A stretch of 64,000 nucleotides of DNA from Granulicella sp. (GCA_027339965.1 DAHWNL010000078.1:1-64000), one strand, 5' to 3'. Shown: positions 19,819-29,131, counted from the stretch's first letter. Notes: generated by a model from the letters alone, not told the origin. Numbers and translations are program-made.

Positions 19819-21081
19819 ATGCGCTTTGAACTTTTTGTCGCAGCCCGCTACCTCCGTGCCCGCCGGCGCCAAGCCGTAGCAGGGCTGGTGACTGTGATCT
19901 CCGTGGTCGGAGTGGCGGCCGGGGTGGGTGCCCTGATCATCGCGCTGTCTATCACCAACGGGATGCGGCGCGACATGCAACGGCAGTTGGTGGGCGTCAC
20001 GGCCCATGTACAGTTGATGAGCGCCGCCGGCGACGGAATCCATCATTGGCGAGCGCTGATGGCCAGTCTGGCTCGGGTTCCTCATGTGGTGGCTGTGGCC
20101 CCGGGGCTGTATGGGCAAGTGCTCATCTCGCGCGGAGCTCGCAGCGGCGGAGCGCTGATCAAGGGCATCTTGCCGCGAAACGAACGTCGAGTGGGAAACC
20201 TGCTCCAGATGATTCACGAAGGATCGGCGGCCGATCTGGCGCCGGCTCGCAACCCCGGCGCCACTCAGAGTCAACTGGCGCCGCCGATCGTCATCGGCGA
20301 TGAACTGGCTGAGACGTTGGGCGCCGGCTTGGGCGACACCGTGTTGGTCACCTCGCCGCAGGGCGAACTTACTCCGCTGGGGCTGGTTCCCCGCTACCAG
20401 AGGTTTCGCGTGGTGGGCATCTTCTCCTCCGGTTTCTACCAGTATGACTCCAGCTACGCCCTCATGCGCCTGGCGGATGCGCAGCGGCTGTTTTCCGAGC
20501 CTGACCTGATCAGCGTTCTGAGCTTCAAGATCGACGACCTCTATCAGGCTATCCCGGTGAGCAAGGCCATCGAAGAGAAGGCGCAAAAAGAGCGTGGCCC
20601 AGGCTTTCAAACCACGAACTGGATCGAGCAGAACCGCGAACTGTTCCGCGCCATGAAGCTGGAACAGGATGTAACCTTCATCGTGCTGGCCCTGATCGTT
20701 GTCGTCGCCGCTCTGAATATTCTGATCGCGCTGACGATGATGGTGATGGAGAAGACGCGGGACATCGCCGTGATGATGGGTTTTGGGGTTACGACGGAGC
20801 AGGTGCGGAAGATCTTTCTGCTGCAGGGCCTGCTGATCTCAGGGGTAGGCACTCTGCTGGGACTTGGCTTGGGTTATGGGATCAGCCTGCTGGGATCCCA
20901 CTACCGGTTCATTCATCTGGACGCAAGTGTATACTCAATCGACTATCTGCCCTTTGCCCCACGACTGGCGGATGGTCTTGTGGTTGCATCGGTGAGCATC
21001 GGCATGAGTCTGCTGGCGACGCTGTACCCCTCGAGTTCGGCAGCCGGCGTTCTGCCGGCTGAGGCGCTGCGATACGAGTAG
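19819..21081 (+). CDS. Lipoprotein-releasing ABC transporter permease (LolC/LolE family)
   Basis: FELFVAARYLRA, ISVVGVAAGV, VAALNI...VMEKTRDIAV and LATLYPS..A..V.PAEALRYE motifs. Confidence 0.92.
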   Translation: MRFELFVAARYLRARRRQAVAGLVTVISVVGVAAGVGALIIALSITNGMRRDMQRQLVGVTAHVQLMSAAGDGIHHWRALMASLARVPHVVAVAPGLYGQVLISRGARSGGALIKGILPRNERRVGNLLQMIHEGSAADLAPARNPGATQSQLAPPIVIGDELAETLGAGLGDTVLVTSPQGELTPLGLVPRYQRFRVVGIFSSGFYQYDSSYALMRLADAQRLFSEPDLISVLSFKIDDLYQAIPVSKAIEEKAQKERGPGFQTTNWIEQNRELFRAMKLEQDVTFIVLALIVVVAALNILIALTMMVMEKTRDIAVMMGFGVTTEQVRKIFLLQGLLISGVGTLLGLGLGYGISLLGSHYRFIHLDASVYSIDYLPFAPRLADGLVVASVSIGMSLLATLYPSSSAAGVLPAEALRYE

Positions 21082-21542: not shown

Positions 21543-21558
21543 TGTGACGGGCGTCGCA
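21543..21558. promoter_or_regulatory. CRP/FNR-family-like operator
   Basis: TGTGA-CGGGCG-TCGCA, a 9/10 match to TGTGA-N6-TCACA, in the 1 kb non-coding region upstream of the cyc2-like gene. Confidence 0.3.
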
Positions 21559-22156: not shown

Positions 22157-23476
22157 ATGCGGAAAGTTCTGAGTCTTTTTGCCATTGCGTGCTTCCTGTT
22201 TGGCATTCCCTATGCCCACGCAGTCCCGAGTTTCGCGCGGCAGACAGGCCTTTCCTGCAATGTATGCCACACCCAACCACCGGAGCTGACGGCCTTTGGT
22301 CGGAACTTCAAGCTGAAAGGTTATGTGCTGACCGACATGACCGCGAAAGACAAGGTCGGTAACTCTAAGGATTTACTGCTGTCGAGGTTTATTCCGCTTG
22401 CCGCGATGGTGATCCTATCTGATACAGCCGACCAGGTAGCGCAGCCGGGGACCCAGAACAATACTGTGGAGTTTCCTCAGCAGTTGAGTATCTTTCTTGC
22501 AGGAGCGTACGCTGCGAATTTTGGGTCACTGATCTCGGCCTCCTATTCACATCAGAGTAACCATTTCAACTTGACCAATTCTGACTTACGCTACGCGAAT
22601 CAAGGTAAGCTGGACGGTAAGGACTGGTGGTACGGGATCACCTTGAACAATAGCCCGACCGTGGAAGATGTCTGGAATAGCACGCCTGTCTGGGGATATC
22701 CCTATATCAACAGCACCTCCGCACTCTCGCCGCTCGCAGCGCCGATAATCAACGGCGCTCTGGCCCAGGATGTTGCGGGGCTTGGCGGTTACAGCATGTG
22801 GGACAACCACTTTTACACCGCAGTCACCCTTTATCGGTCAGAACATGCCGGCGGCCCCGTGCCGATCACTGGAAAGACATTCGCGAACAACATCAGCGGC
22901 GTGGCACCTTACTGGCGAGCTGCATGGCAGCAGACTTTTGGCGACACCTATCTGGAAGTTGGCACCTATGGAATCGTCGTGGATGCCTTTCCCAATGCGA
23001 TCAGCGGACCGGAAAACCGGTACGTAGATCCTTCTATCGATTTCCAATTAGAGCATCCATTTGGTGCGAATCTGCTGGATGCGCACGGAAGATATACGCA
23101 CGAATCATCCAATCTCGCAGCGTCCTTTGCGACAGGCGCAGCAAGCCAGAAATCCAACTACTTGAACGCATGGGAACTGGACAGCACGTATCACTGGAGA
23201 TATAAGTACACCGCTACCGGATCCATTTTCTCCACGACGGGAAATACGGACCCGCTGCTGTATGCTCCGGCACCGGTGACGGGAAGCAATAATGGAAACC
23301 CGGACACATATGGATATGTGGCCCAATTCGGCTACTGGCCAGTACAGAATATTGAACTTACAGCAGAATATACGGGATATACAAAATTCAACGGCGCCAG
23401 TAGTAATTATGACGGCGCGAAGCGAAATGCCTCCGACAACAACAGTTTGTATCTGGGTATGTGGCTGAACTTCTAA
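22157..23476 (+). CDS. cyc2: Cyc2-like fused monoheme cytochrome c / outer-membrane porin
   Basis: Signal peptide ending AHA, then VPSFARQTGLSCNVCHTQPPELTAFGRNFKLKGY (the Cyc2 AxPxFARQ..CxxCH..P.L..FGR.FK..GY signature). The beta-barrel-like body ends in YLGMWLNF with the terminal Phe typical of OMPs. GGAGAGG RBS; alternative start 22151. Confidence 0.85.
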   Translation: MRKVLSLFAIACFLFGIPYAHAVPSFARQTGLSCNVCHTQPPELTAFGRNFKLKGYVLTDMTAKDKVGNSKDLLLSRFIPLAAMVILSDTADQVAQPGTQNNTVEFPQQLSIFLAGAYAANFGSLISASYSHQSNHFNLTNSDLRYANQGKLDGKDWWYGITLNNSPTVEDVWNSTPVWGYPYINSTSALSPLAAPIINGALAQDVAGLGGYSMWDNHFYTAVTLYRSEHAGGPVPITGKTFANNISGVAPYWRAAWQQTFGDTYLEVGTYGIVVDAFPNAISGPENRYVDPSIDFQLEHPFGANLLDAHGRYTHESSNLAASFATGAASQKSNYLNAWELDSTYHWRYKYTATGSIFSTTGNTDPLLYAPAPVTGSNNGNPDTYGYVAQFGYWPVQNIELTAEYTGYTKFNGASSNYDGAKRNASDNNSLYLGMWLNF

Positions 23477-23871
23477 AAGAGAGCGGCATTCAAAACTCCG
23501 AAGTGACGAGAGACAGATAAAACGGAAGTGTTTCGGAATACGACGAGGACGGGGTCGCAGAGCATCTGAATTCAGCTGAGGTTTTGTGGCGATTTATTGG
23601 GAGGCTCGATTTTTCGCATCTGCGATGAGCCGGCAGCTTGCGTTGCTGCTGGAGGCGACGGTCGGGAACGATCCACTCCATGCTCGATCGTGTCCATCGG
23701 GCGCGAATCCGGCTGGCGCGAGTCCGGCAGGATACCTGCCGCTCCGCTTCGCTCAACAACACCGGGCGCTTCCTCCGCACCATGGAAGAAGCTGAAACCT
23801 ACTATCTGCCTCACCCGTAAGTCCTTCGCTTGAGGCCGTACCTATTGATGCAACCAGTTCTAGGAGACGAC

Positions 23872-24429
23872 GTGGAACAGGAAAGACATACGGAGATCGT
23901 CGCTGGCAACAGAGATGTGATCGTCATCAACCGGCGTTCCTTTTTTGGCACGTTGGTAGCCATCGGTTCGGCAGGTATGGGGGCATTTCTCGCGATACCT
24001 GTCTTGCGCTATGTTCTTTACCCGCTTTACGCCAAAGCGGCGGGCACGCAGTGGTCGGACGTGGGCGACATGTCCGAGTTCACCGCAGACAAAGCTCCAG
24101 TACGCAAGACCATCACTTTTGCCCAGCGCGATGGCTGGCGGGAGGTGGTATCCGCTCAGTCGGTCTATGTGACACGGAACGCCGCGGGTCAGTTGGAGGT
24201 GCTGTCCTCCATTTGTCCCCACCTGGGCTGTAGCGTCTCCTGGCAAAAGGCGCAGAACGACTTTTTGTGTCCGTGTCACGGAAGCGTATTCGAGCCTGAC
24301 GGAAAATATGTTTCCGGGCCGGCCCCGCGCGGCATGGATCCACTGCCGATCCGGACAAAGAACGGCAAACTACAGGTTCGCTTTGAGTATTTCCGGTCAA
24401 ACGTTCCGAATCAAGAAAAGTTAAGCTAG
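23872..24429 (+). CDS. Rieske [2Fe-2S] subunit of a cytochrome bc-type complex
   Basis: NRRSFFG Tat motif plus TM helix; CPHLGC and CPCHGS boxes; GPAPRGM. AGGAG RBS before GTG 23872. Confidence 0.93.
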   Translation: MEQERHTEIVAGNRDVIVINRRSFFGTLVAIGSAGMGAFLAIPVLRYVLYPLYAKAAGTQWSDVGDMSEFTADKAPVRKTITFAQRDGWREVVSAQSVYVTRNAAGQLEVLSSICPHLGCSVSWQKAQNDFLCPCHGSVFEPDGKYVSGPAPRGMDPLPIRTKNGKLQVRFEYFRSNVPNQEKLS

Positions 24430-24448
24430 CTGCGATGAGGGTATAAGA

Positions 24449-27181
24449 GTGGACCATAGAGAGAAAGCAGAGACTGGTTCATCGGCGAGCGGGAGCCTTC
24501 CCCGGCGCATATTTCACTGGCTCGACCGGCGCGCGGGCGTAGACCAACTGATGAAGGTTTCGCTCGACGAGCCGATTCCGGGCGGCGCAAGGTTTGCCTA
24601 CGTCTTCGGCTCGGGGCTGCTGTTTATCTTTATTTCGCAGATCATTACCGGCATCTGCCTGGCGCTTTACTATGTGCCTTCGGCGGAGACAGCCCATACC
24701 AGCGTCGCTTACATTACCAAGCAGGTTGCGGCGGGTTCTTTCTTGCGCAGCCTGCATTACTACGGCGCCAGCGCGATGATTATCGTCCTGGGGCTGCACT
24801 TTCTGCAAACATTCCTTTACGGATCATTCAAGGGCCGCCGCGAATTGCTCTGGATCTCCGGGGCGACGCTTTCTCTCTTAGTGCTGGGTATGGGCTTTAC
24901 GGGTTATCTGCTTCCATGGGACCAGAGAGCCTATTTCGCCACCGCGGTGGGAACAAATATTGTTGGAGAGATTCCGTGGATCGGCGCATGGCTTACAAGG
25001 CTGATGCGGGGCGGCGATACCATCGGCACGCTTACCTTGTCGCGCTTTTATGTGGCGCATGTCTTTCTGATCCCGGCGACGATCTTTGCGTTCATCAGCA
25101 TTCACATCTTTCTCTTCCGCAAGGCTGGCGCAGCCGGCCCCATCGAACAGCAGCCCCTCGGACCCGAGTTGCCTCCCGAAAGCTTCTATCCACGCCAGGT
25201 CCTGATGGACATGGCTTTCGCCTTGCTGATCATGGTGGGCCTTGGATTTCTGGCTTATGGCCATCCGGTTCCTCTCGGCCCCATTGCGAATCCGGCCGAC
25301 ACCCATTTTCTGCCTCGGCCAGAGTGGTATTACCTTCCCATGTTCGAGTGGCTCAAGTTCTGGGAAGGTCCGAAGGTAGTATTTGCGGTGGTGATTACTC
25401 CGGCTGTGCTTGCGGCGTTGTTCTTCCTGTTGCCGTTTCTCGATCGCAGTCTGGAGCGGAGACCATGGCGCCGGCCCATTCCGGTGCTGGCCGTGGCCGT
25501 TGTCCTTCTGGGAACTGTCTTTTTGGGAGTAAAGAGCACCGTAGATGACCGTAAAGATCCAACGGTCGCCACGCAACTGGCTTTGCAGGCGCAGGAGGAA
25601 AAAGAATACACAGCCGCGCCCTTCCGTCCGTACATCGAGTCGCCCGGGAGCACCGGTCCGCTTGCCCTTCCGATTGGCCCGGTGAATCCGCTGGTGTCGC
25701 AAGGCAAAGGTGTCTTTCAGGCGCAAGGATGCTCGGGTTGCCACGGCGATGTTGGCCTGGGCACCACTGTTGCGCCAAGCCTGAAGGGGATTACGACCAA
25801 GTTCACTCCGGAGCAGTTAACTGATCTGGTGCACAACCCGAATGCCGCGATGCGGGCCGGCCACATGCCTGCTTTTGATCTCTCCTCAACCGACATGACA
25901 GCTCTGCTGGCGTACCTGGGAGTGATTGGGACCAGTGAGGCGAATGTGCAGGCCTCTTCCGGCGCCTCGCTGCAGCCGACCGTCGCAAGCGTGAGTACGG
26001 CAAGCGCGCCGGCTGCTGTAGCAGGCGCTCCGTCCGAAGCTGCGCCGGGGCCGGCCCCGGCGCCGTCCCAGCGAACCGCCGCCGCGATTGCGGGCCAACA
26101 ACTGTTCCAGCAGCACGCCTGTTTTGCCTGTCACGGACCCGCCGGACAAGGCGGACGAGCGCCCGCGCTGGCTCCTCTGATTGCGCATCTTTCCGATGCG
26201 CAACTGGCGCAACTGCTGCAAAACCCGAATAGCACCATGAGAGCGGGAGGGATGCCCCCGTTTACTGGCACAGCGCAGCAGCTCAGCATGCTGCTGGCTT
26301 ATTTGCGCACGCTGCATTCGCCGGCACCAGCGCAGCCGCCCAGCGTTGCCCAGCCGTCCAGCGTTGCCCAAACCGCAGCCCAGGGGGGCGGAATTCCGTA
26401 TCCGGAGATGGGTCCCCCGGAGGTGACGGCGGCGAAAGCAGCGCCGGCTACCGCCCAAGCGTCTGCCTCGGTCGCGGCCCCGGCAGCGGCCAGTTCGCCG
26501 GTCGCTACAGTTTCAGCCCCGGCAGCGCTGCCAAGTCCTGGGCGCTCTCTGTTTCTGTCTGAGGGATGCTCGGCGTGCCATGGACCTCTGGCGCAAGGAA
26601 CTGCGTTTGCTCCATCGCTGGTGGGAATTACGAAAAAGATTCCGCGGACCCAGATACCTGCACTCCTGCGCCACCCGAATGCACAGATGCGCGCCGGGGG
26701 TATGCCGACGTTCGACCTGACAGACACACAGATGCAACAGCTTGTGAGCTATCTGTCCAGCCTGAAGCCGGCGGCAGCTACGGCTCCTTCGGCAGCTACG
26801 GCGCCGCGCACGGCGGCGGGCGTGCCTCCTGTCTCCCAACAAGCAACGGCTTCGGGAGCCGCTGGCGCTGCGCGGGCAGAAGCCGCTTCTGCTCCCCCGC
26901 CCCCACCGCTGAGCCCGTTAGCAAAACAGGGAGAAAAGATATTCCAGCGTCTCAACTGCGAAACTTGCCACGGGGTTGGCGGATTGACTGGAACCGTCGC
27001 TGCTCCACCTTTGGCGGGAACCGCCTCGCTTCTACCCGCCAGCGTGCTGGAGAATCTGTTGCGGCACCACTCGACGCGGATGCAACAAGGCGGTATGCCG
27101 CTCACCAATCTGAACCCGCCAGACATGAAGGCTCTGGTGGCCTATATCCGATCCATGCCTTCGACGCCGGAGACACGATGA
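24449..27181 (+). CDS. Cytochrome b (b6 + subunit IV type) fused to four monoheme cytochrome c domains
   Basis: Heme b His pairs (SLHYYG..GLHF; AHVF..SIH), TGYLLPWDQ and PEWY motifs. These are followed by CSGCH, CFACH, CSACH and CETCH, each with a downstream G(G/H)MP distal ligand, separated by Ala/Pro-rich linkers. Confidence 0.92.
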   Translation: MDHREKAETGSSASGSLPRRIFHWLDRRAGVDQLMKVSLDEPIPGGARFAYVFGSGLLFIFISQIITGICLALYYVPSAETAHTSVAYITKQVAAGSFLRSLHYYGASAMIIVLGLHFLQTFLYGSFKGRRELLWISGATLSLLVLGMGFTGYLLPWDQRAYFATAVGTNIVGEIPWIGAWLTRLMRGGDTIGTLTLSRFYVAHVFLIPATIFAFISIHIFLFRKAGAAGPIEQQPLGPELPPESFYPRQVLMDMAFALLIMVGLGFLAYGHPVPLGPIANPADTHFLPRPEWYYLPMFEWLKFWEGPKVVFAVVITPAVLAALFFLLPFLDRSLERRPWRRPIPVLAVAVVLLGTVFLGVKSTVDDRKDPTVATQLALQAQEEKEYTAAPFRPYIESPGSTGPLALPIGPVNPLVSQGKGVFQAQGCSGCHGDVGLGTTVAPSLKGITTKFTPEQLTDLVHNPNAAMRAGHMPAFDLSSTDMTALLAYLGVIGTSEANVQASSGASLQPTVASVSTASAPAAVAGAPSEAAPGPAPAPSQRTAAAIAGQQLFQQHACFACHGPAGQGGRAPALAPLIAHLSDAQLAQLLQNPNSTMRAGGMPPFTGTAQQLSMLLAYLRTLHSPAPAQPPSVAQPSSVAQTAAQGGGIPYPEMGPPEVTAAKAAPATAQASASVAAPAAASSPVATVSAPAALPSPGRSLFLSEGCSACHGPLAQGTAFAPSLVGITKKIPRTQIPALLRHPNAQMRAGGMPTFDLTDTQMQQLVSYLSSLKPAAATAPSAATAPRTAAGVPPVSQQATASGAAGAARAEAASAPPPPPLSPLAKQGEKIFQRLNCETCHGVGGLTGTVAAPPLAGTASLLPASVLENLLRHHSTRMQQGGMPLTNLNPPDMKALVAYIRSMPSTPETR

Positions 27182-27330: not shown

Positions 27331-27360
27331 GCGCCCGCAGCCAGCGGGCGCTTTTTCTTT
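27331..27360 (+). terminator. Rho-independent terminator after the cytochrome cluster
   Basis: GCGCCCGC-AGCCA-GCGGGCGC followed by TTTTTCTTT. Confidence 0.8.
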
Positions 27361-27731: not shown

Positions 27732-28286
27732 ATGAGACTGCGTTATCCCAAACTAGCGCCAGACGGGTATCAGGCTCTGCTAAGCCTGGGGAGATATCTC
27801 GCCCATCAGACGGCGCTGGAGCCGGTGCTGCTTGAGATGGTGTACCTGCGCTCGTCGCAACTCAATGGCTGCCAGTTCTGCATTGGGATGCACTCGGAGG
27901 AGCTGCGCAAACTAGGCGAGATGGAAGATCGGATCGACGCCCTGAACGATTGGCGTGGGTCCGATGAGTTTACGCCGCGGGAGCGCGCAGCGCTCTCCTG
28001 GGCTGAAGCGGTGACTGATGTGAATGCCTCCCATGTCTCCGACGAGGAATACGCCGCGGCCAAGGAGTTTTTTCCGGACAAGGACCTGGTCGACCTGACC
28101 TACGCCATTGCAGCCATCAACGCCTGGAACCGGCTCGGTATCGCCTTTCGGGCTGAATGGTTATCGGCGGGACAAGCGTCCGGCCGTACGATGGCACCCT
28201 TTCGCTCCTCTGAGCCCCAGCCCATGGAGAGCGAAGCCGGCCCTGCCGAGGCGAGGGAGACTGACGAGTGGACGGCGAGCGAATGA
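27732..28286 (+). CDS. Carboxymuconolactone decarboxylase / AhpD-like protein
   Basis: LRSSQLNGCQFCIGMH (CxxC), RERAAL.WAE..T and IN.WNR motifs. GGAGG RBS. Confidence 0.9.
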   Translation: MRLRYPKLAPDGYQALLSLGRYLAHQTALEPVLLEMVYLRSSQLNGCQFCIGMHSEELRKLGEMEDRIDALNDWRGSDEFTPRERAALSWAEAVTDVNASHVSDEEYAAAKEFFPDKDLVDLTYAIAAINAWNRLGIAFRAEWLSAGQASGRTMAPFRSSEPQPMESEAGPAEARETDEWTASE

Positions 28287-29131
28287 GACGTCCCCCTCTT
28301 CCACCGCGGCAGGACGTTTCCGGACCTGACACTGGCCGACGGGGAGAGGCTGGGCCGGAGCCTCCCAGCCGACCAGCAGGCACAGGGCAAGGCGCCGCTA
28401 TCCTGCGCGCGCTGGGGTTGGAGAAGACCTATCCGCCGCAGCGGTCTGGAACGAACGGTGTGCGGCTGTTCCAGAATCTGTCGCTTGAGGTCTACACCGG
28501 TGAGATGGTCGCCGTGGTGGGAGAGAGTGGCGCTGGGAAAAGTTCTCTCTTGCACCTGCTGGCTGCGCTGGACGCTCCCACCGCCGGCGAGGTCTGGTGC
28601 GGAGAGATTGACGTTACCGGGCTTAACCCACGGCAAGCCGCCGTCTATCGCAATCGGGAGATCGGCTACGTGTGGCAATTTCATTATCTTCTGCCCGAGT
28701 TTACGGCCTTGGAGAATGTGGCCATGCCGCTGCTGGCGCGAGGAGATTCCCCTGCCTCCGCACGACGCCGGGCGGAGCAATGGCTGGCGAAGGTAGGGCT
28801 GCCGGACCGCGCCGGACATCGATCCGGCGAATTGTCCGGCGGAGAGCAGCAGCGGTTATCGATCGCGCGCGCACTGATCACTTCGCCCCGCCTTCTACTG
28901 GCCGACGAGCCCACCGGCGATCTGGATGGAACCACCGCGGAAGCGGTCTTCACCCTGTTGCAGCAGTTATGCCGGCAGCGGCAAGGCGCGGATGCCATGG
29001 CCAGCTTGCTGGTAACCCACAATCTTGAGTTTGCCGCCCGCTGCGACCGGGTGTTGCGCTTGCGGGACGGATGGCTGGAGCCGTGGGAGTCCCGTGCTGC
29101 CAGCAAGAGTCAGGAAGCAGAGCCAGCCTGA
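28283..29131 (+). CDS. lolD: Lipoprotein-releasing ABC transporter ATP-binding protein
   Basis: GESGAGKS Walker A, QFHYLLPEFTALENV (LolD motif), LSGGEQQR and ADEPTG. ATGA overlap with the upstream stop codon. Confidence 0.88.
   Translation: MRRPPLPPRQDVSGPDTGRRGEAGPEPPSRPAGTGQGAAILRALGLEKTYPPQRSGTNGVRLFQNLSLEVYTGEMVAVVGESGAGKSSLLHLLAALDAPTAGEVWCGEIDVTGLNPRQAAVYRNREIGYVWQFHYLLPEFTALENVAMPLLARGDSPASARRRAEQWLAKVGLPDRAGHRSGELSGGEQQRLSIARALITSPRLLLADEPTGDLDGTTAEAVFTLLQQLCRQRQGADAMASLLVTHNLEFAARCDRVLRLRDGWLEPWESRAASKSQEAEPA

Follow-up and report, generated by a model that had tools for sequence, protein, structure and literature searches.

A conserved three-gene unit that joins a Cyc2-type haem-porin to a Rieske/cytochrome b complex with a tethered chain of four c domains in an acidobacterial genome

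Haem-porins of the Cyc2 type, exemplified by Cyc2 of the Acidithiobacillus ferrooxidans rus operon, Cyt572 of Leptospirillum, and Cyc2PV-1 of Mariprofundus, combine an AXPXFARQT motif, a CxxCH haem site, a PxL motif, and a C-terminal barrel. A protein with the same features is encoded, together with a Rieske protein and a cytochrome b bearing four c-type cytochrome domains, at positions 22157-27181 of a 64,000-nucleotide stretch of DNA from Granulicella sp. (DAHWNL010000078.1:1-64000; the whole stretch is called the window below). The three-gene unit is real and conserved, and we give about an even chance to the reading that Cyc2 and an accessory Rieske/cytochrome b complex with tethered c domains carry menaquinol electrons outward to Fe(III) or a similar acceptor. 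In comparison to the rus operon, the unit is without cyc1, rusticyanin, and oxidase genes and holds the bc complex within the same operon, whereas the bc1 genes of Acidithiobacillus form a separate pet operon and the parts in Leptospirillum are unclustered, according to the accessible text of PMC10654088; unlike the autotrophic hosts of rus and pet, the acidobacterial host shows no carbon fixation marker. The bc part resembles the "PEWY-cyt c" clade, as presented in the accessible sections of Kao and Hunte 2014 (PMC4122944), in its unsplit cytochrome b, its PEWY motif, and its C-terminal class I c domain, and an Acidobacterium with several bc copies likewise has one from that clade. The present protein differs in its number of c domains, four joined by long linkers instead of one, and in being tied to an outer-membrane conduit. 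Those sections describe the fusion and find no clear reason for the multiple copies; Cyc2 is not mentioned in them. With the MtrAB and MtoAB-MtoD-CymA systems the unit has in common a co-encoded outer-membrane conduit, periplasmic carrier, and quinone-linked protein, and the likeness extends to relatives of the bc clade that stand behind DmsE-family decahaem and porin-like genes and to a NapC-like anchor that can carry the chain. It differs in having one outer-membrane haem rather than ten, with no decahaem in a separate porin, a quinone module that is a Q-cycle enzyme, and a carrier that is covalently tethered. Each part is known, and the joined unit with its tethered chain was not found in the literature searched. 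No paper was found on cyc2 sharing an operon with Rieske/cytochrome b genes, in a search that stopped short of subscription texts, bioRxiv supplements, and figshare Cyc2 trees; an initial sequence-only reading of the window had likewise not recognised the arrangement among described iron-cycling operons, and within the same limits the literature offered no match.

The sequence-only reading had also described the trio itself and a strong terminator behind it. Three open reading frames (ORFs) on the + strand, together with their motifs and Pfam matches, confirmed a Cyc2-type haem-porin, a Rieske protein exported by the twin-arginine translocation (Tat) pathway, and a cytochrome b with four c domains, and the hairpin at 27331-27360 (eight G-C pairs followed by a T run) ranked first among 18 terminator-like sites, compared with 6.7 in shuffled sequences. 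The features of the locus are:

21543-21558, no strand: Crp-type palindrome TGTGA-N6-TCGCA, a candidate Crp/Fnr-family site, 614 bp before cyc2
22157-23476, + strand: Cyc2-family monohaem cytochrome-porin (439 aa; motifs, barrel model, and porin matches)
23477-23857, no strand: lineage-specific non-coding stretch inserted after cyc2 and ahead of the Rieske gene, with the 5-bp repeat TTCTA on either side
23872-24429, + strand: Rieske [2Fe-2S] subunit, Tat-exported (185 aa; PF00355; CPHLGC and CPCHGSVF, S-F signature)
24449-27181, + strand: cytochrome b fused to four c domains, whole ORF (910 aa; PF00033, PF00032, and four PF00034 stretches)
24449-25555, + strand: unsplit cytochrome b core (PF00033, PF00032; seven predicted membrane helices)
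25685-25933, + strand: c domain D1, nearest the membrane and corresponding to the one fused domain that relatives have
26075-26317, + strand: c domain D2
26528-26770, + strand: c domain D3
26912-27160, + strand: c domain D4, distal and most conserved in the alignment, a candidate Cyc2-docking domain
27331-27360, + strand: intrinsic-terminator-like hairpin with a T run (terminator scan)

Relative to genome G009, synonymous codon changes exceed replacements in every part of the unit (cyc2, 101:28; Rieske, 45:22; cytochrome b core, 96:22; c chain, 132:68).

Conservation of the unit was assessed in an even draw of 250 genomes of the family, among which the cytochrome b core matched 41 genomes at 42 places (E ≤ 1e-90). 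We compared 41 of the 42 places (G042 counts only in the 42-place tally); L063, where cytochrome b is cut at 158 aa, and six duplicate loci are also left out. Seventeen places in the draw are multi-c loci, 15 of them complete with three to five haem motifs and two truncated at contig ends and classed from their place in the tree, and all 17 read cyc2-Rieske-cytochrome b with nothing in between. The remaining 24, one of them cut, are single-c loci: 11 read cyc2-small c-Rieske-cytochrome b, four read decahaem-porin-like-small c-Rieske-cytochrome b, seven have a small c gene only, one has neither conduit nor small c gene, and one (L090) combines a distant Cyc2 with a downstream dihaem c. A separate small c gene thus stands ahead of the Rieske gene in 22 of the 24 single-c loci and in none of the 17 multi-c loci. 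This contrast favours the earlier proposal that tethered c domains replace soluble shuttles, with the restriction that the genome encodes other small c-type cytochromes and may still depend on soluble carriers. Once relatives and named loci (the best 80 of 576 confirmed) are added, the non-redundant multi-c set contains 38 loci besides the window, 37 in the same gene order and one (L189) arranged Rieske-cytochrome b-cyc2, and L206, from another family, brings the total to 39 other loci; the proposal had been made conditional on the adjacency recurring in some other genome. A D4 query matched only 6 of 401 genomes of the phylum at E ≤ 1e-12, four of them multi-c, and the multi-c form therefore belongs mainly to the order of the source. 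The four-domain unit is present in L114, titled Acidipila rosea DSM 103428 (type strain).

The Cyc2 partners of the multi-c cytochromes also hold together, all 39 falling in one tree group (support 99) that has a single extra member, L123 (L123:11575-13377, Bryobacterales). There the gene after cyc2 encodes a fusion of a NapC/NrfH-like tetrahaem anchor with three homologous c domains; the NrfH match is weak (E 1.7e-6, below the cut-off), and the c domains score 78-91 bits on the D1, D3, or D4 profiles and 18-30 bits on the small-c profile. Such swaps carry more weight than the counts of the draw: the chain and this Cyc2 branch stay together here while the quinone module changes. The converse arrangement is seen in L090, which is nested among the multi-c cytochromes b and has lost the chain and gained the distant Cyc2 and separate dihaem c; a single clade of the multi-c forms plus L090 is not rejected by an approximately unbiased test (p-AU 0.75) on the cytochrome b trees, which are quick trees. 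A decahaem gene and a large porin-like gene take the place of cyc2 in the four single-c loci noted above and also in L040 and L041, where the decahaem exceeds the cut-off for the DmsE family.

The 439-residue Cyc2 has a signal-like N-terminus, an AVPSFARQT motif ahead of the haem site that fits AXPXFAR[Q/K][T/Y], one CxxCH (C34-H38) followed by P42-E-L44 as PxL, and a C-terminal Phe, in agreement with the family motifs as defined in the consulted part of 10.1101/228056. A scan with Pfam and NCBIfam matched no family to it, and its profile matched no solved structure by sequence. The AlphaFold model is a beta-barrel (mean predicted local distance difference test (pLDDT) 67.7), for which the top Foldseek matches were porins (best E 1.2e-9, template modelling (TM) score ∼0.5). 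The Cyc2 query matched 50 of the 250 genomes of the draw; counted over 251 genomes of the family, 51 (∼1 in 5) hold a Cyc2 homologue, and most of the homologues examined adjoin a bc-type complex. For the Rieske subunit, a GTG at 23872 behind AGGAGA is the likely start, rather than ATG 23848; the gene precedes that of cytochrome b, and its product has both Rieske boxes, a PF00355 match, and a Tat signal with the twin-arginine motif NRRSFF. Cytochrome b has the haem b ligands His103, His117, His204, and His219 and PEWY at the quinol oxidation (Qo) site, its nearest solved structures are cytochromes b6 and b, and the PEWY motif with a C-terminal class I c domain fits the definition of the PEWY-cyt c clade in the accessible sections of PMC4122944. 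It lacks the haem ci cysteine, and an assignment to the b6f/Firmicute type with haem ci was rejected, as cytochrome b is unsplit and YVFGS/YIFGS replaces CxGG. Its seven predicted helices would put the C-terminal c chain in the periplasm, with the topology taken from the known fold. PEWY occupies the Qo site in 35 of 36 cytochromes b, and the Rieske signature is G-F in 24 of 39, S-F in 15 of 39, and S-Y in none of 39.

The c domains of the chain have their CxxCH motifs at cytochrome b residues 428, 558, 707, and 837, and a methionine motif at the axial place is found in 33 of 33 D1, D3, and D4 domains and 29 of 33 D2 domains. Mean identity to the single fused domain of relatives is 45% for D1 and 39-42% for D2-D4, and the identity of D2-D4 to small c genes is 24-27%. 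The extra domains arose by duplication of the fused domain, being closer to it than to small c genes; on the same figures, capture of a small c gene as the source of D2-D4 was rejected. A profile search of protein representatives returned 632 proteins (E ≤ 1e-30). In another listing, of 120 protein homologues, the CxxCH count was four in 117, three in two, and five in one. The middle domains vary in number and the end domains are kept in most variants, the exceptions among three-motif homologues being one protein without the D4 motif and one without the D1 motif. The linkers total 123-168 residues per protein (33 proteins), are unconserved, and are rich in Ala, Pro, Ser, and Thr (Ala 30%, Pro 17%). 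AlphaFold gave the domains pLDDT values of 85-95 and the linkers ∼30, with a predicted TM score of 0.30 and no fixed arrangement. The chain is accordingly predicted to consist of beads on disordered linkers, a relay rather than the rigid wire that had been proposed. Each linker would span ∼5-6 nm at rest and 17-25 nm when stretched (by a coil formula), far beyond direct haem-to-haem tunnelling, so electron transfer would need transient contacts; the stretched reach could cover a periplasm. In a 64-sequence alignment D4 has 44 of 83 columns conserved at ≥90%, compared with 20-38 in D1-D3, and its mean within-class identity is 67% versus 54-61% for the other c domains. As the most conserved c domain, D4 is our candidate for docking to Cyc2. 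An orphan D4 fragment (L048:1241-1393, G000:C64; 59% identity) lies close to a transposase-like gene and is probably a remnant of a second copy.

Within the window, cyc2 and the Rieske gene are separated by a 395-bp gap (23477-23871). The gap is genuine, being spanned by contigs of two other studies, and it is atypical, being absent from 20 of 22 multi-c loci compared. In those 20 the cyc2 stop abuts the Rieske ribosome-binding site, often within TAGGAGA, and the twin-arginine codons lie 61-93 nt past the stop. The inserted stretch is common only to G007 (97%) and G009 (75%), has no other copy in the source genome, and shows no protein homology. The ancestral stop/ribosome-binding-site junction TTCTAGGAGA persists at its 3' end, and because of this and of the TTCTA on both sides we read the gap as a late insertion. 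Searches of the gap for the remains of a small cytochrome c gene and for repeated elements found neither, and both origins were rejected. The terminator scan found no + strand terminator-like site within it, and cyc2 and the Rieske/cytochrome b genes are inferred to be co-transcribed.

The Crp-type box ahead of the window cyc2 has one mismatch; G009 and sister strains of runs X10/X11 (21556 G>A) have a perfect copy. Fourteen of 34 loci have, no more than 750 bp upstream of cyc2, a TGTGA-N6-TCACA site with one mismatch or none, and in 12 of them it is perfect; shuffled upstream regions gave a mean of 0.7 and a maximum of 3. One-mismatch sites are at chance level genome-wide, so the support for the box is its positional conservation. 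Perfect sites number 11 in the source genome, against 1-6 expected, and precede, among others, both DmsE-family decahaem genes (∼100-120 bp upstream of the pairs at L211 and L212) and the genes for pyruvate:ferredoxin oxidoreductase, citrate synthase, and 2-oxoglutarate dehydrogenase; the genes for hybrid-cluster protein and HemY and the second cyc2 operon have one-mismatch sites ahead of them. The unit is a candidate member of a respiratory regulon on this pattern of sites. The Fnr-type box TTGAT-N4-ATCAA was not enriched, with 1 in 34 upstream regions versus 0.6.

The sequence-only reading had left the direction of electron flow as either uphill or outward. Outward flow stands as the more likely of the two, favoured by searches that found no carbon fixation marker, the menaquinone genes, PEWY, the low or mid Rieske signature, the separate bc-oxidase operon, and the DmsE-type conduits in the same slot; uphill flow is the weaker option because no such marker was found and because both the Qo motif and the Rieske signature are of the kind that goes with menaquinol oxidation in the forward direction. 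RuBisCO and CO dehydrogenase/acetyl-CoA synthase were not found in the 98.9% complete source genome in searches whose control worked. PF00016 matched in 4 of 23 multi-c genomes; three of the matches, beside a sugar-acid kinase-like gene, appear from their sequences and neighbours to be RuBisCO-like proteins, and no form I or II RuBisCO was recognised in the 23 genomes, one match being an untyped fragment. The source genome has futalosine menaquinone genes, and chorismate lyase was not found in it. PEWY differs from the reverse-type motifs, which the accessible part of PMC4122944 gives as APWY (tied to reverse operation), PPWY (A. ferrooxidans), and PAWY (Leptospirillum). That part places Rieske potentials at ∼150 mV for G-F, mid for S-F, and high for S-Y, and a passage of PMC3509893 gives 200-230 mV for S-F. 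With menaquinone at a midpoint potential at pH 7 (Em7) of -80 mV (PMC4122944) and measured Cyc2 potentials of 208 and 560 mV (10.1101/228056), both taken from the parts of these sources available, transfer from menaquinol to either Cyc2 is downhill. A separate housekeeping bc and oxidase operon, with its own bc complex and dihaem c, exists elsewhere in the genome, so the complex of the unit is an extra one with a dedicated partner. In the accessible text of PMC8790237, heterotrophic Acidobacteria reduce Fe(III) under oxygen limitation, Acidobacterium capsulatum and Acidicapsa do so micro-aerobically, and Cyc2 is proposed as the terminal reductase in anaerobic A. ferrooxidans; Cyc2 also occurs in many non-oxidisers (PMC5566968, in part).

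In the outward reading, a proton-moving forward Q-cycle would oxidise menaquinol at the PEWY site, and the Rieske cluster would reduce D1. D2 and D3 would relay electrons along the tether by transient contact, D4 would dock at the periplasmic face of Cyc2, and the Cyc2 haem would reduce Fe(III) or humic or metal acceptors at low oxygen. The fuller claim, that Cyc2 is the outward terminal of a proton-moving Q-cycle complex reached via a covalent cytochrome string, forming a three-protein Fe(III) respiration in which this Cyc2 branch marks electron export instead of iron oxidation, we hold more tentatively, at somewhat short of an even chance. No Fe(III)-reduction machinery of heterotrophic acidophilic Acidobacteria is assigned in the portions of the literature examined, and cyc2 is widely counted as an iron-oxidation marker, including in acidobacterial mine-tailings genomes (PMC13594681, in part). 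If flow is outward, such cyc2-based counts are misread and a role is found for the accessory bc clade. Direct tests of the direction are within reach, as the unit is small and a deposited type strain carries it; no statement on iron use by Acidipila rosea was found in the literature.

Several observations weigh against outward flow through this unit. All biochemically tested Cyc2 homologues are Fe(II) oxidases, according to the accessible part of 10.1101/228056. The Qo and Rieske motifs bear on direction only indirectly and potentials based on them are rough; the window Rieske is S-F (mid) rather than G-F, and in PMC4122944, as far as its accessible sections go, Rieske potentials of the PEWY-cyt c clade span the whole range and its acid-adapted members have PAWY. 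ATP-citrate lyase was not found in the source genome in a search that had no positive control. The two DmsE-type conduits and the second cyc2-bc operon could do the outward job, and low-oxygen control is unproven by a box that also precedes citrate synthase and 2-oxoglutarate dehydrogenase. The multi-c cytochromes b require three changes on the quick tree, with only two independent pairs, too few to give the test any power (sign test p = 1), and the association of a fused chain with the absence of a shuttle is thus phylogenetically clumped, representing about two independent events. L046 reads cyc2-Rieske-cytochrome b with one c domain and no small c gene, L181 has a dihaem gene ahead of cyc2, and 8 of the 24 single-c loci have no conduit nearby, so the bc clade can stand alone.

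The tested homologues also speak for a possible but doubtful alternative, in which the tethered c domains receive electrons from Fe(II) via Cyc2 and from menaquinol via the bc complex and are drained by a terminal oxidase encoded elsewhere, giving mixotrophic Fe(II) oxidation. In the accessible text of PMC10654088 acidobacterial homologues group near Leptospirillum Cyt572, and one review, seen in part, names Acidobacteria among Fe(II) oxidisers with no detail given. The source genome has two haem-copper oxidases, and the housekeeping oxidase operon of L038 is found 5-6 kb away, on the opposite strand. Mine drainage, one of the habitats labelled for this DNA, is rich in Fe(II). Yet none of the 38 multi-c loci has a same-strand oxidase gene, unlike the rus operon, the housekeeping oxidase is already paired with a bc complex and dihaem c of its own, and what is reported for Acidobacterium and Acidicapsa is Fe(III) reduction (PMC8790237, in part).

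We consider it unlikely that the unit is a valve or sink, storing surplus electrons in four haems or dumping them on outside oxidants (humics, Mn, Cu, electrodes), in either direction, during oxygen swings. The titles of carrier records that name palsa and other non-mine sources, the patchy spread (17 of 250 family genomes), and the palindrome ahead of pyruvate:ferredoxin oxidoreductase and both decahaem conduits (perfect) and of hybrid-cluster protein (one mismatch) would suit such a role; energy conservation is suggested instead by a Q-cycle enzyme that is complete and has its motifs intact, and the excess of synonymous over replacement changes in all parts also counts against it. Slightly less probable still is entry of Fe(II) electrons through Cyc2 and their return via the bc complex into the quinone pool, driven by the proton motive force as in Acidithiobacillus. 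That is the accepted role of the bc1 complex beside Cyc2 in iron oxidisers, in the sources as far as available, and direct tethering would suit it, but the host shows no carbon fixation marker that would use the reducing power, menaquinone lies 290-640 mV under the two measured Cyc2 potentials, and the Qo motif is PEWY in a set where no Rieske protein is S-Y. Co-regulation without contact, in which the genes share a promoter and the c chain serves another periplasmic partner, is very improbable: it accords with the eight single-c loci that have no conduit and with Cyc2-D4 docking being a prediction only, but the Cyc2 group and chain persist together despite the anchor swap in L123 and the altered gene order in L189, and the nested L090, which has lost the chain, comes with another Cyc2 and a separate dihaem c.

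The source genome is 3.8 Mb, and its named relatives are Acidobacteriota, the majority Acidobacteriaceae. Eleven runs share at least half of the words; they are labelled mine drainage, mine tailings, sediment, or plain metagenome, and nine of them may be the source of the window DNA; runs X12-X20, with less than half of the words shared, were excluded from the habitat evidence. Its housekeeping cytochrome b (L002:7891-15255, G000:C81) has the Qo motif PDFA, outside the six major patterns listed in the accessible sections of PMC4122944. A second cyc2 (L001:5128-16384; G000:C70, ∼120-131 kb) is the last gene of an operon for a cupredoxin-like protein, a flavin adenine dinucleotide/iron-sulfur oxidoreductase, a Rieske protein, a split cytochrome b, and octahaem and monohaem c; a third copy, interrupted by an internal stop, lies behind it, and operons of this type accompany 47 of the 126 Cyc2 rows of the tree. 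L211 and L212 (G000:C44 and C80) are near-duplicate pairs of a DmsE-family decahaem and a 901-aa porin-like gene. Elsewhere, one run of genes (L094:9116-14135) encodes a decahaem, a porin-like protein, two small c, a NapC/NirT-family trihaem, and Rieske/cytochrome b, combining both quinone modules. L177 and L178 (Bacteroidota and Ignavibacteriota) have cyc2 and genes for a monohaem c, a Rieske protein, and a cytochrome b with two c domains; this cytochrome b carries PEWN and, at its C terminus, an additional hydrophobic segment, and its c domains score poorly on the acidobacterial profiles. In the window, the unit is flanked by genes for a LolC/E-like permease (19819-21081) and an ATP-binding cassette (ABC) ATPase (28268-29131), which suggests that it was inserted into a lipoprotein-transport cluster, and the G+C content of cyc2 is 52.5% compared with 59% for the contig.

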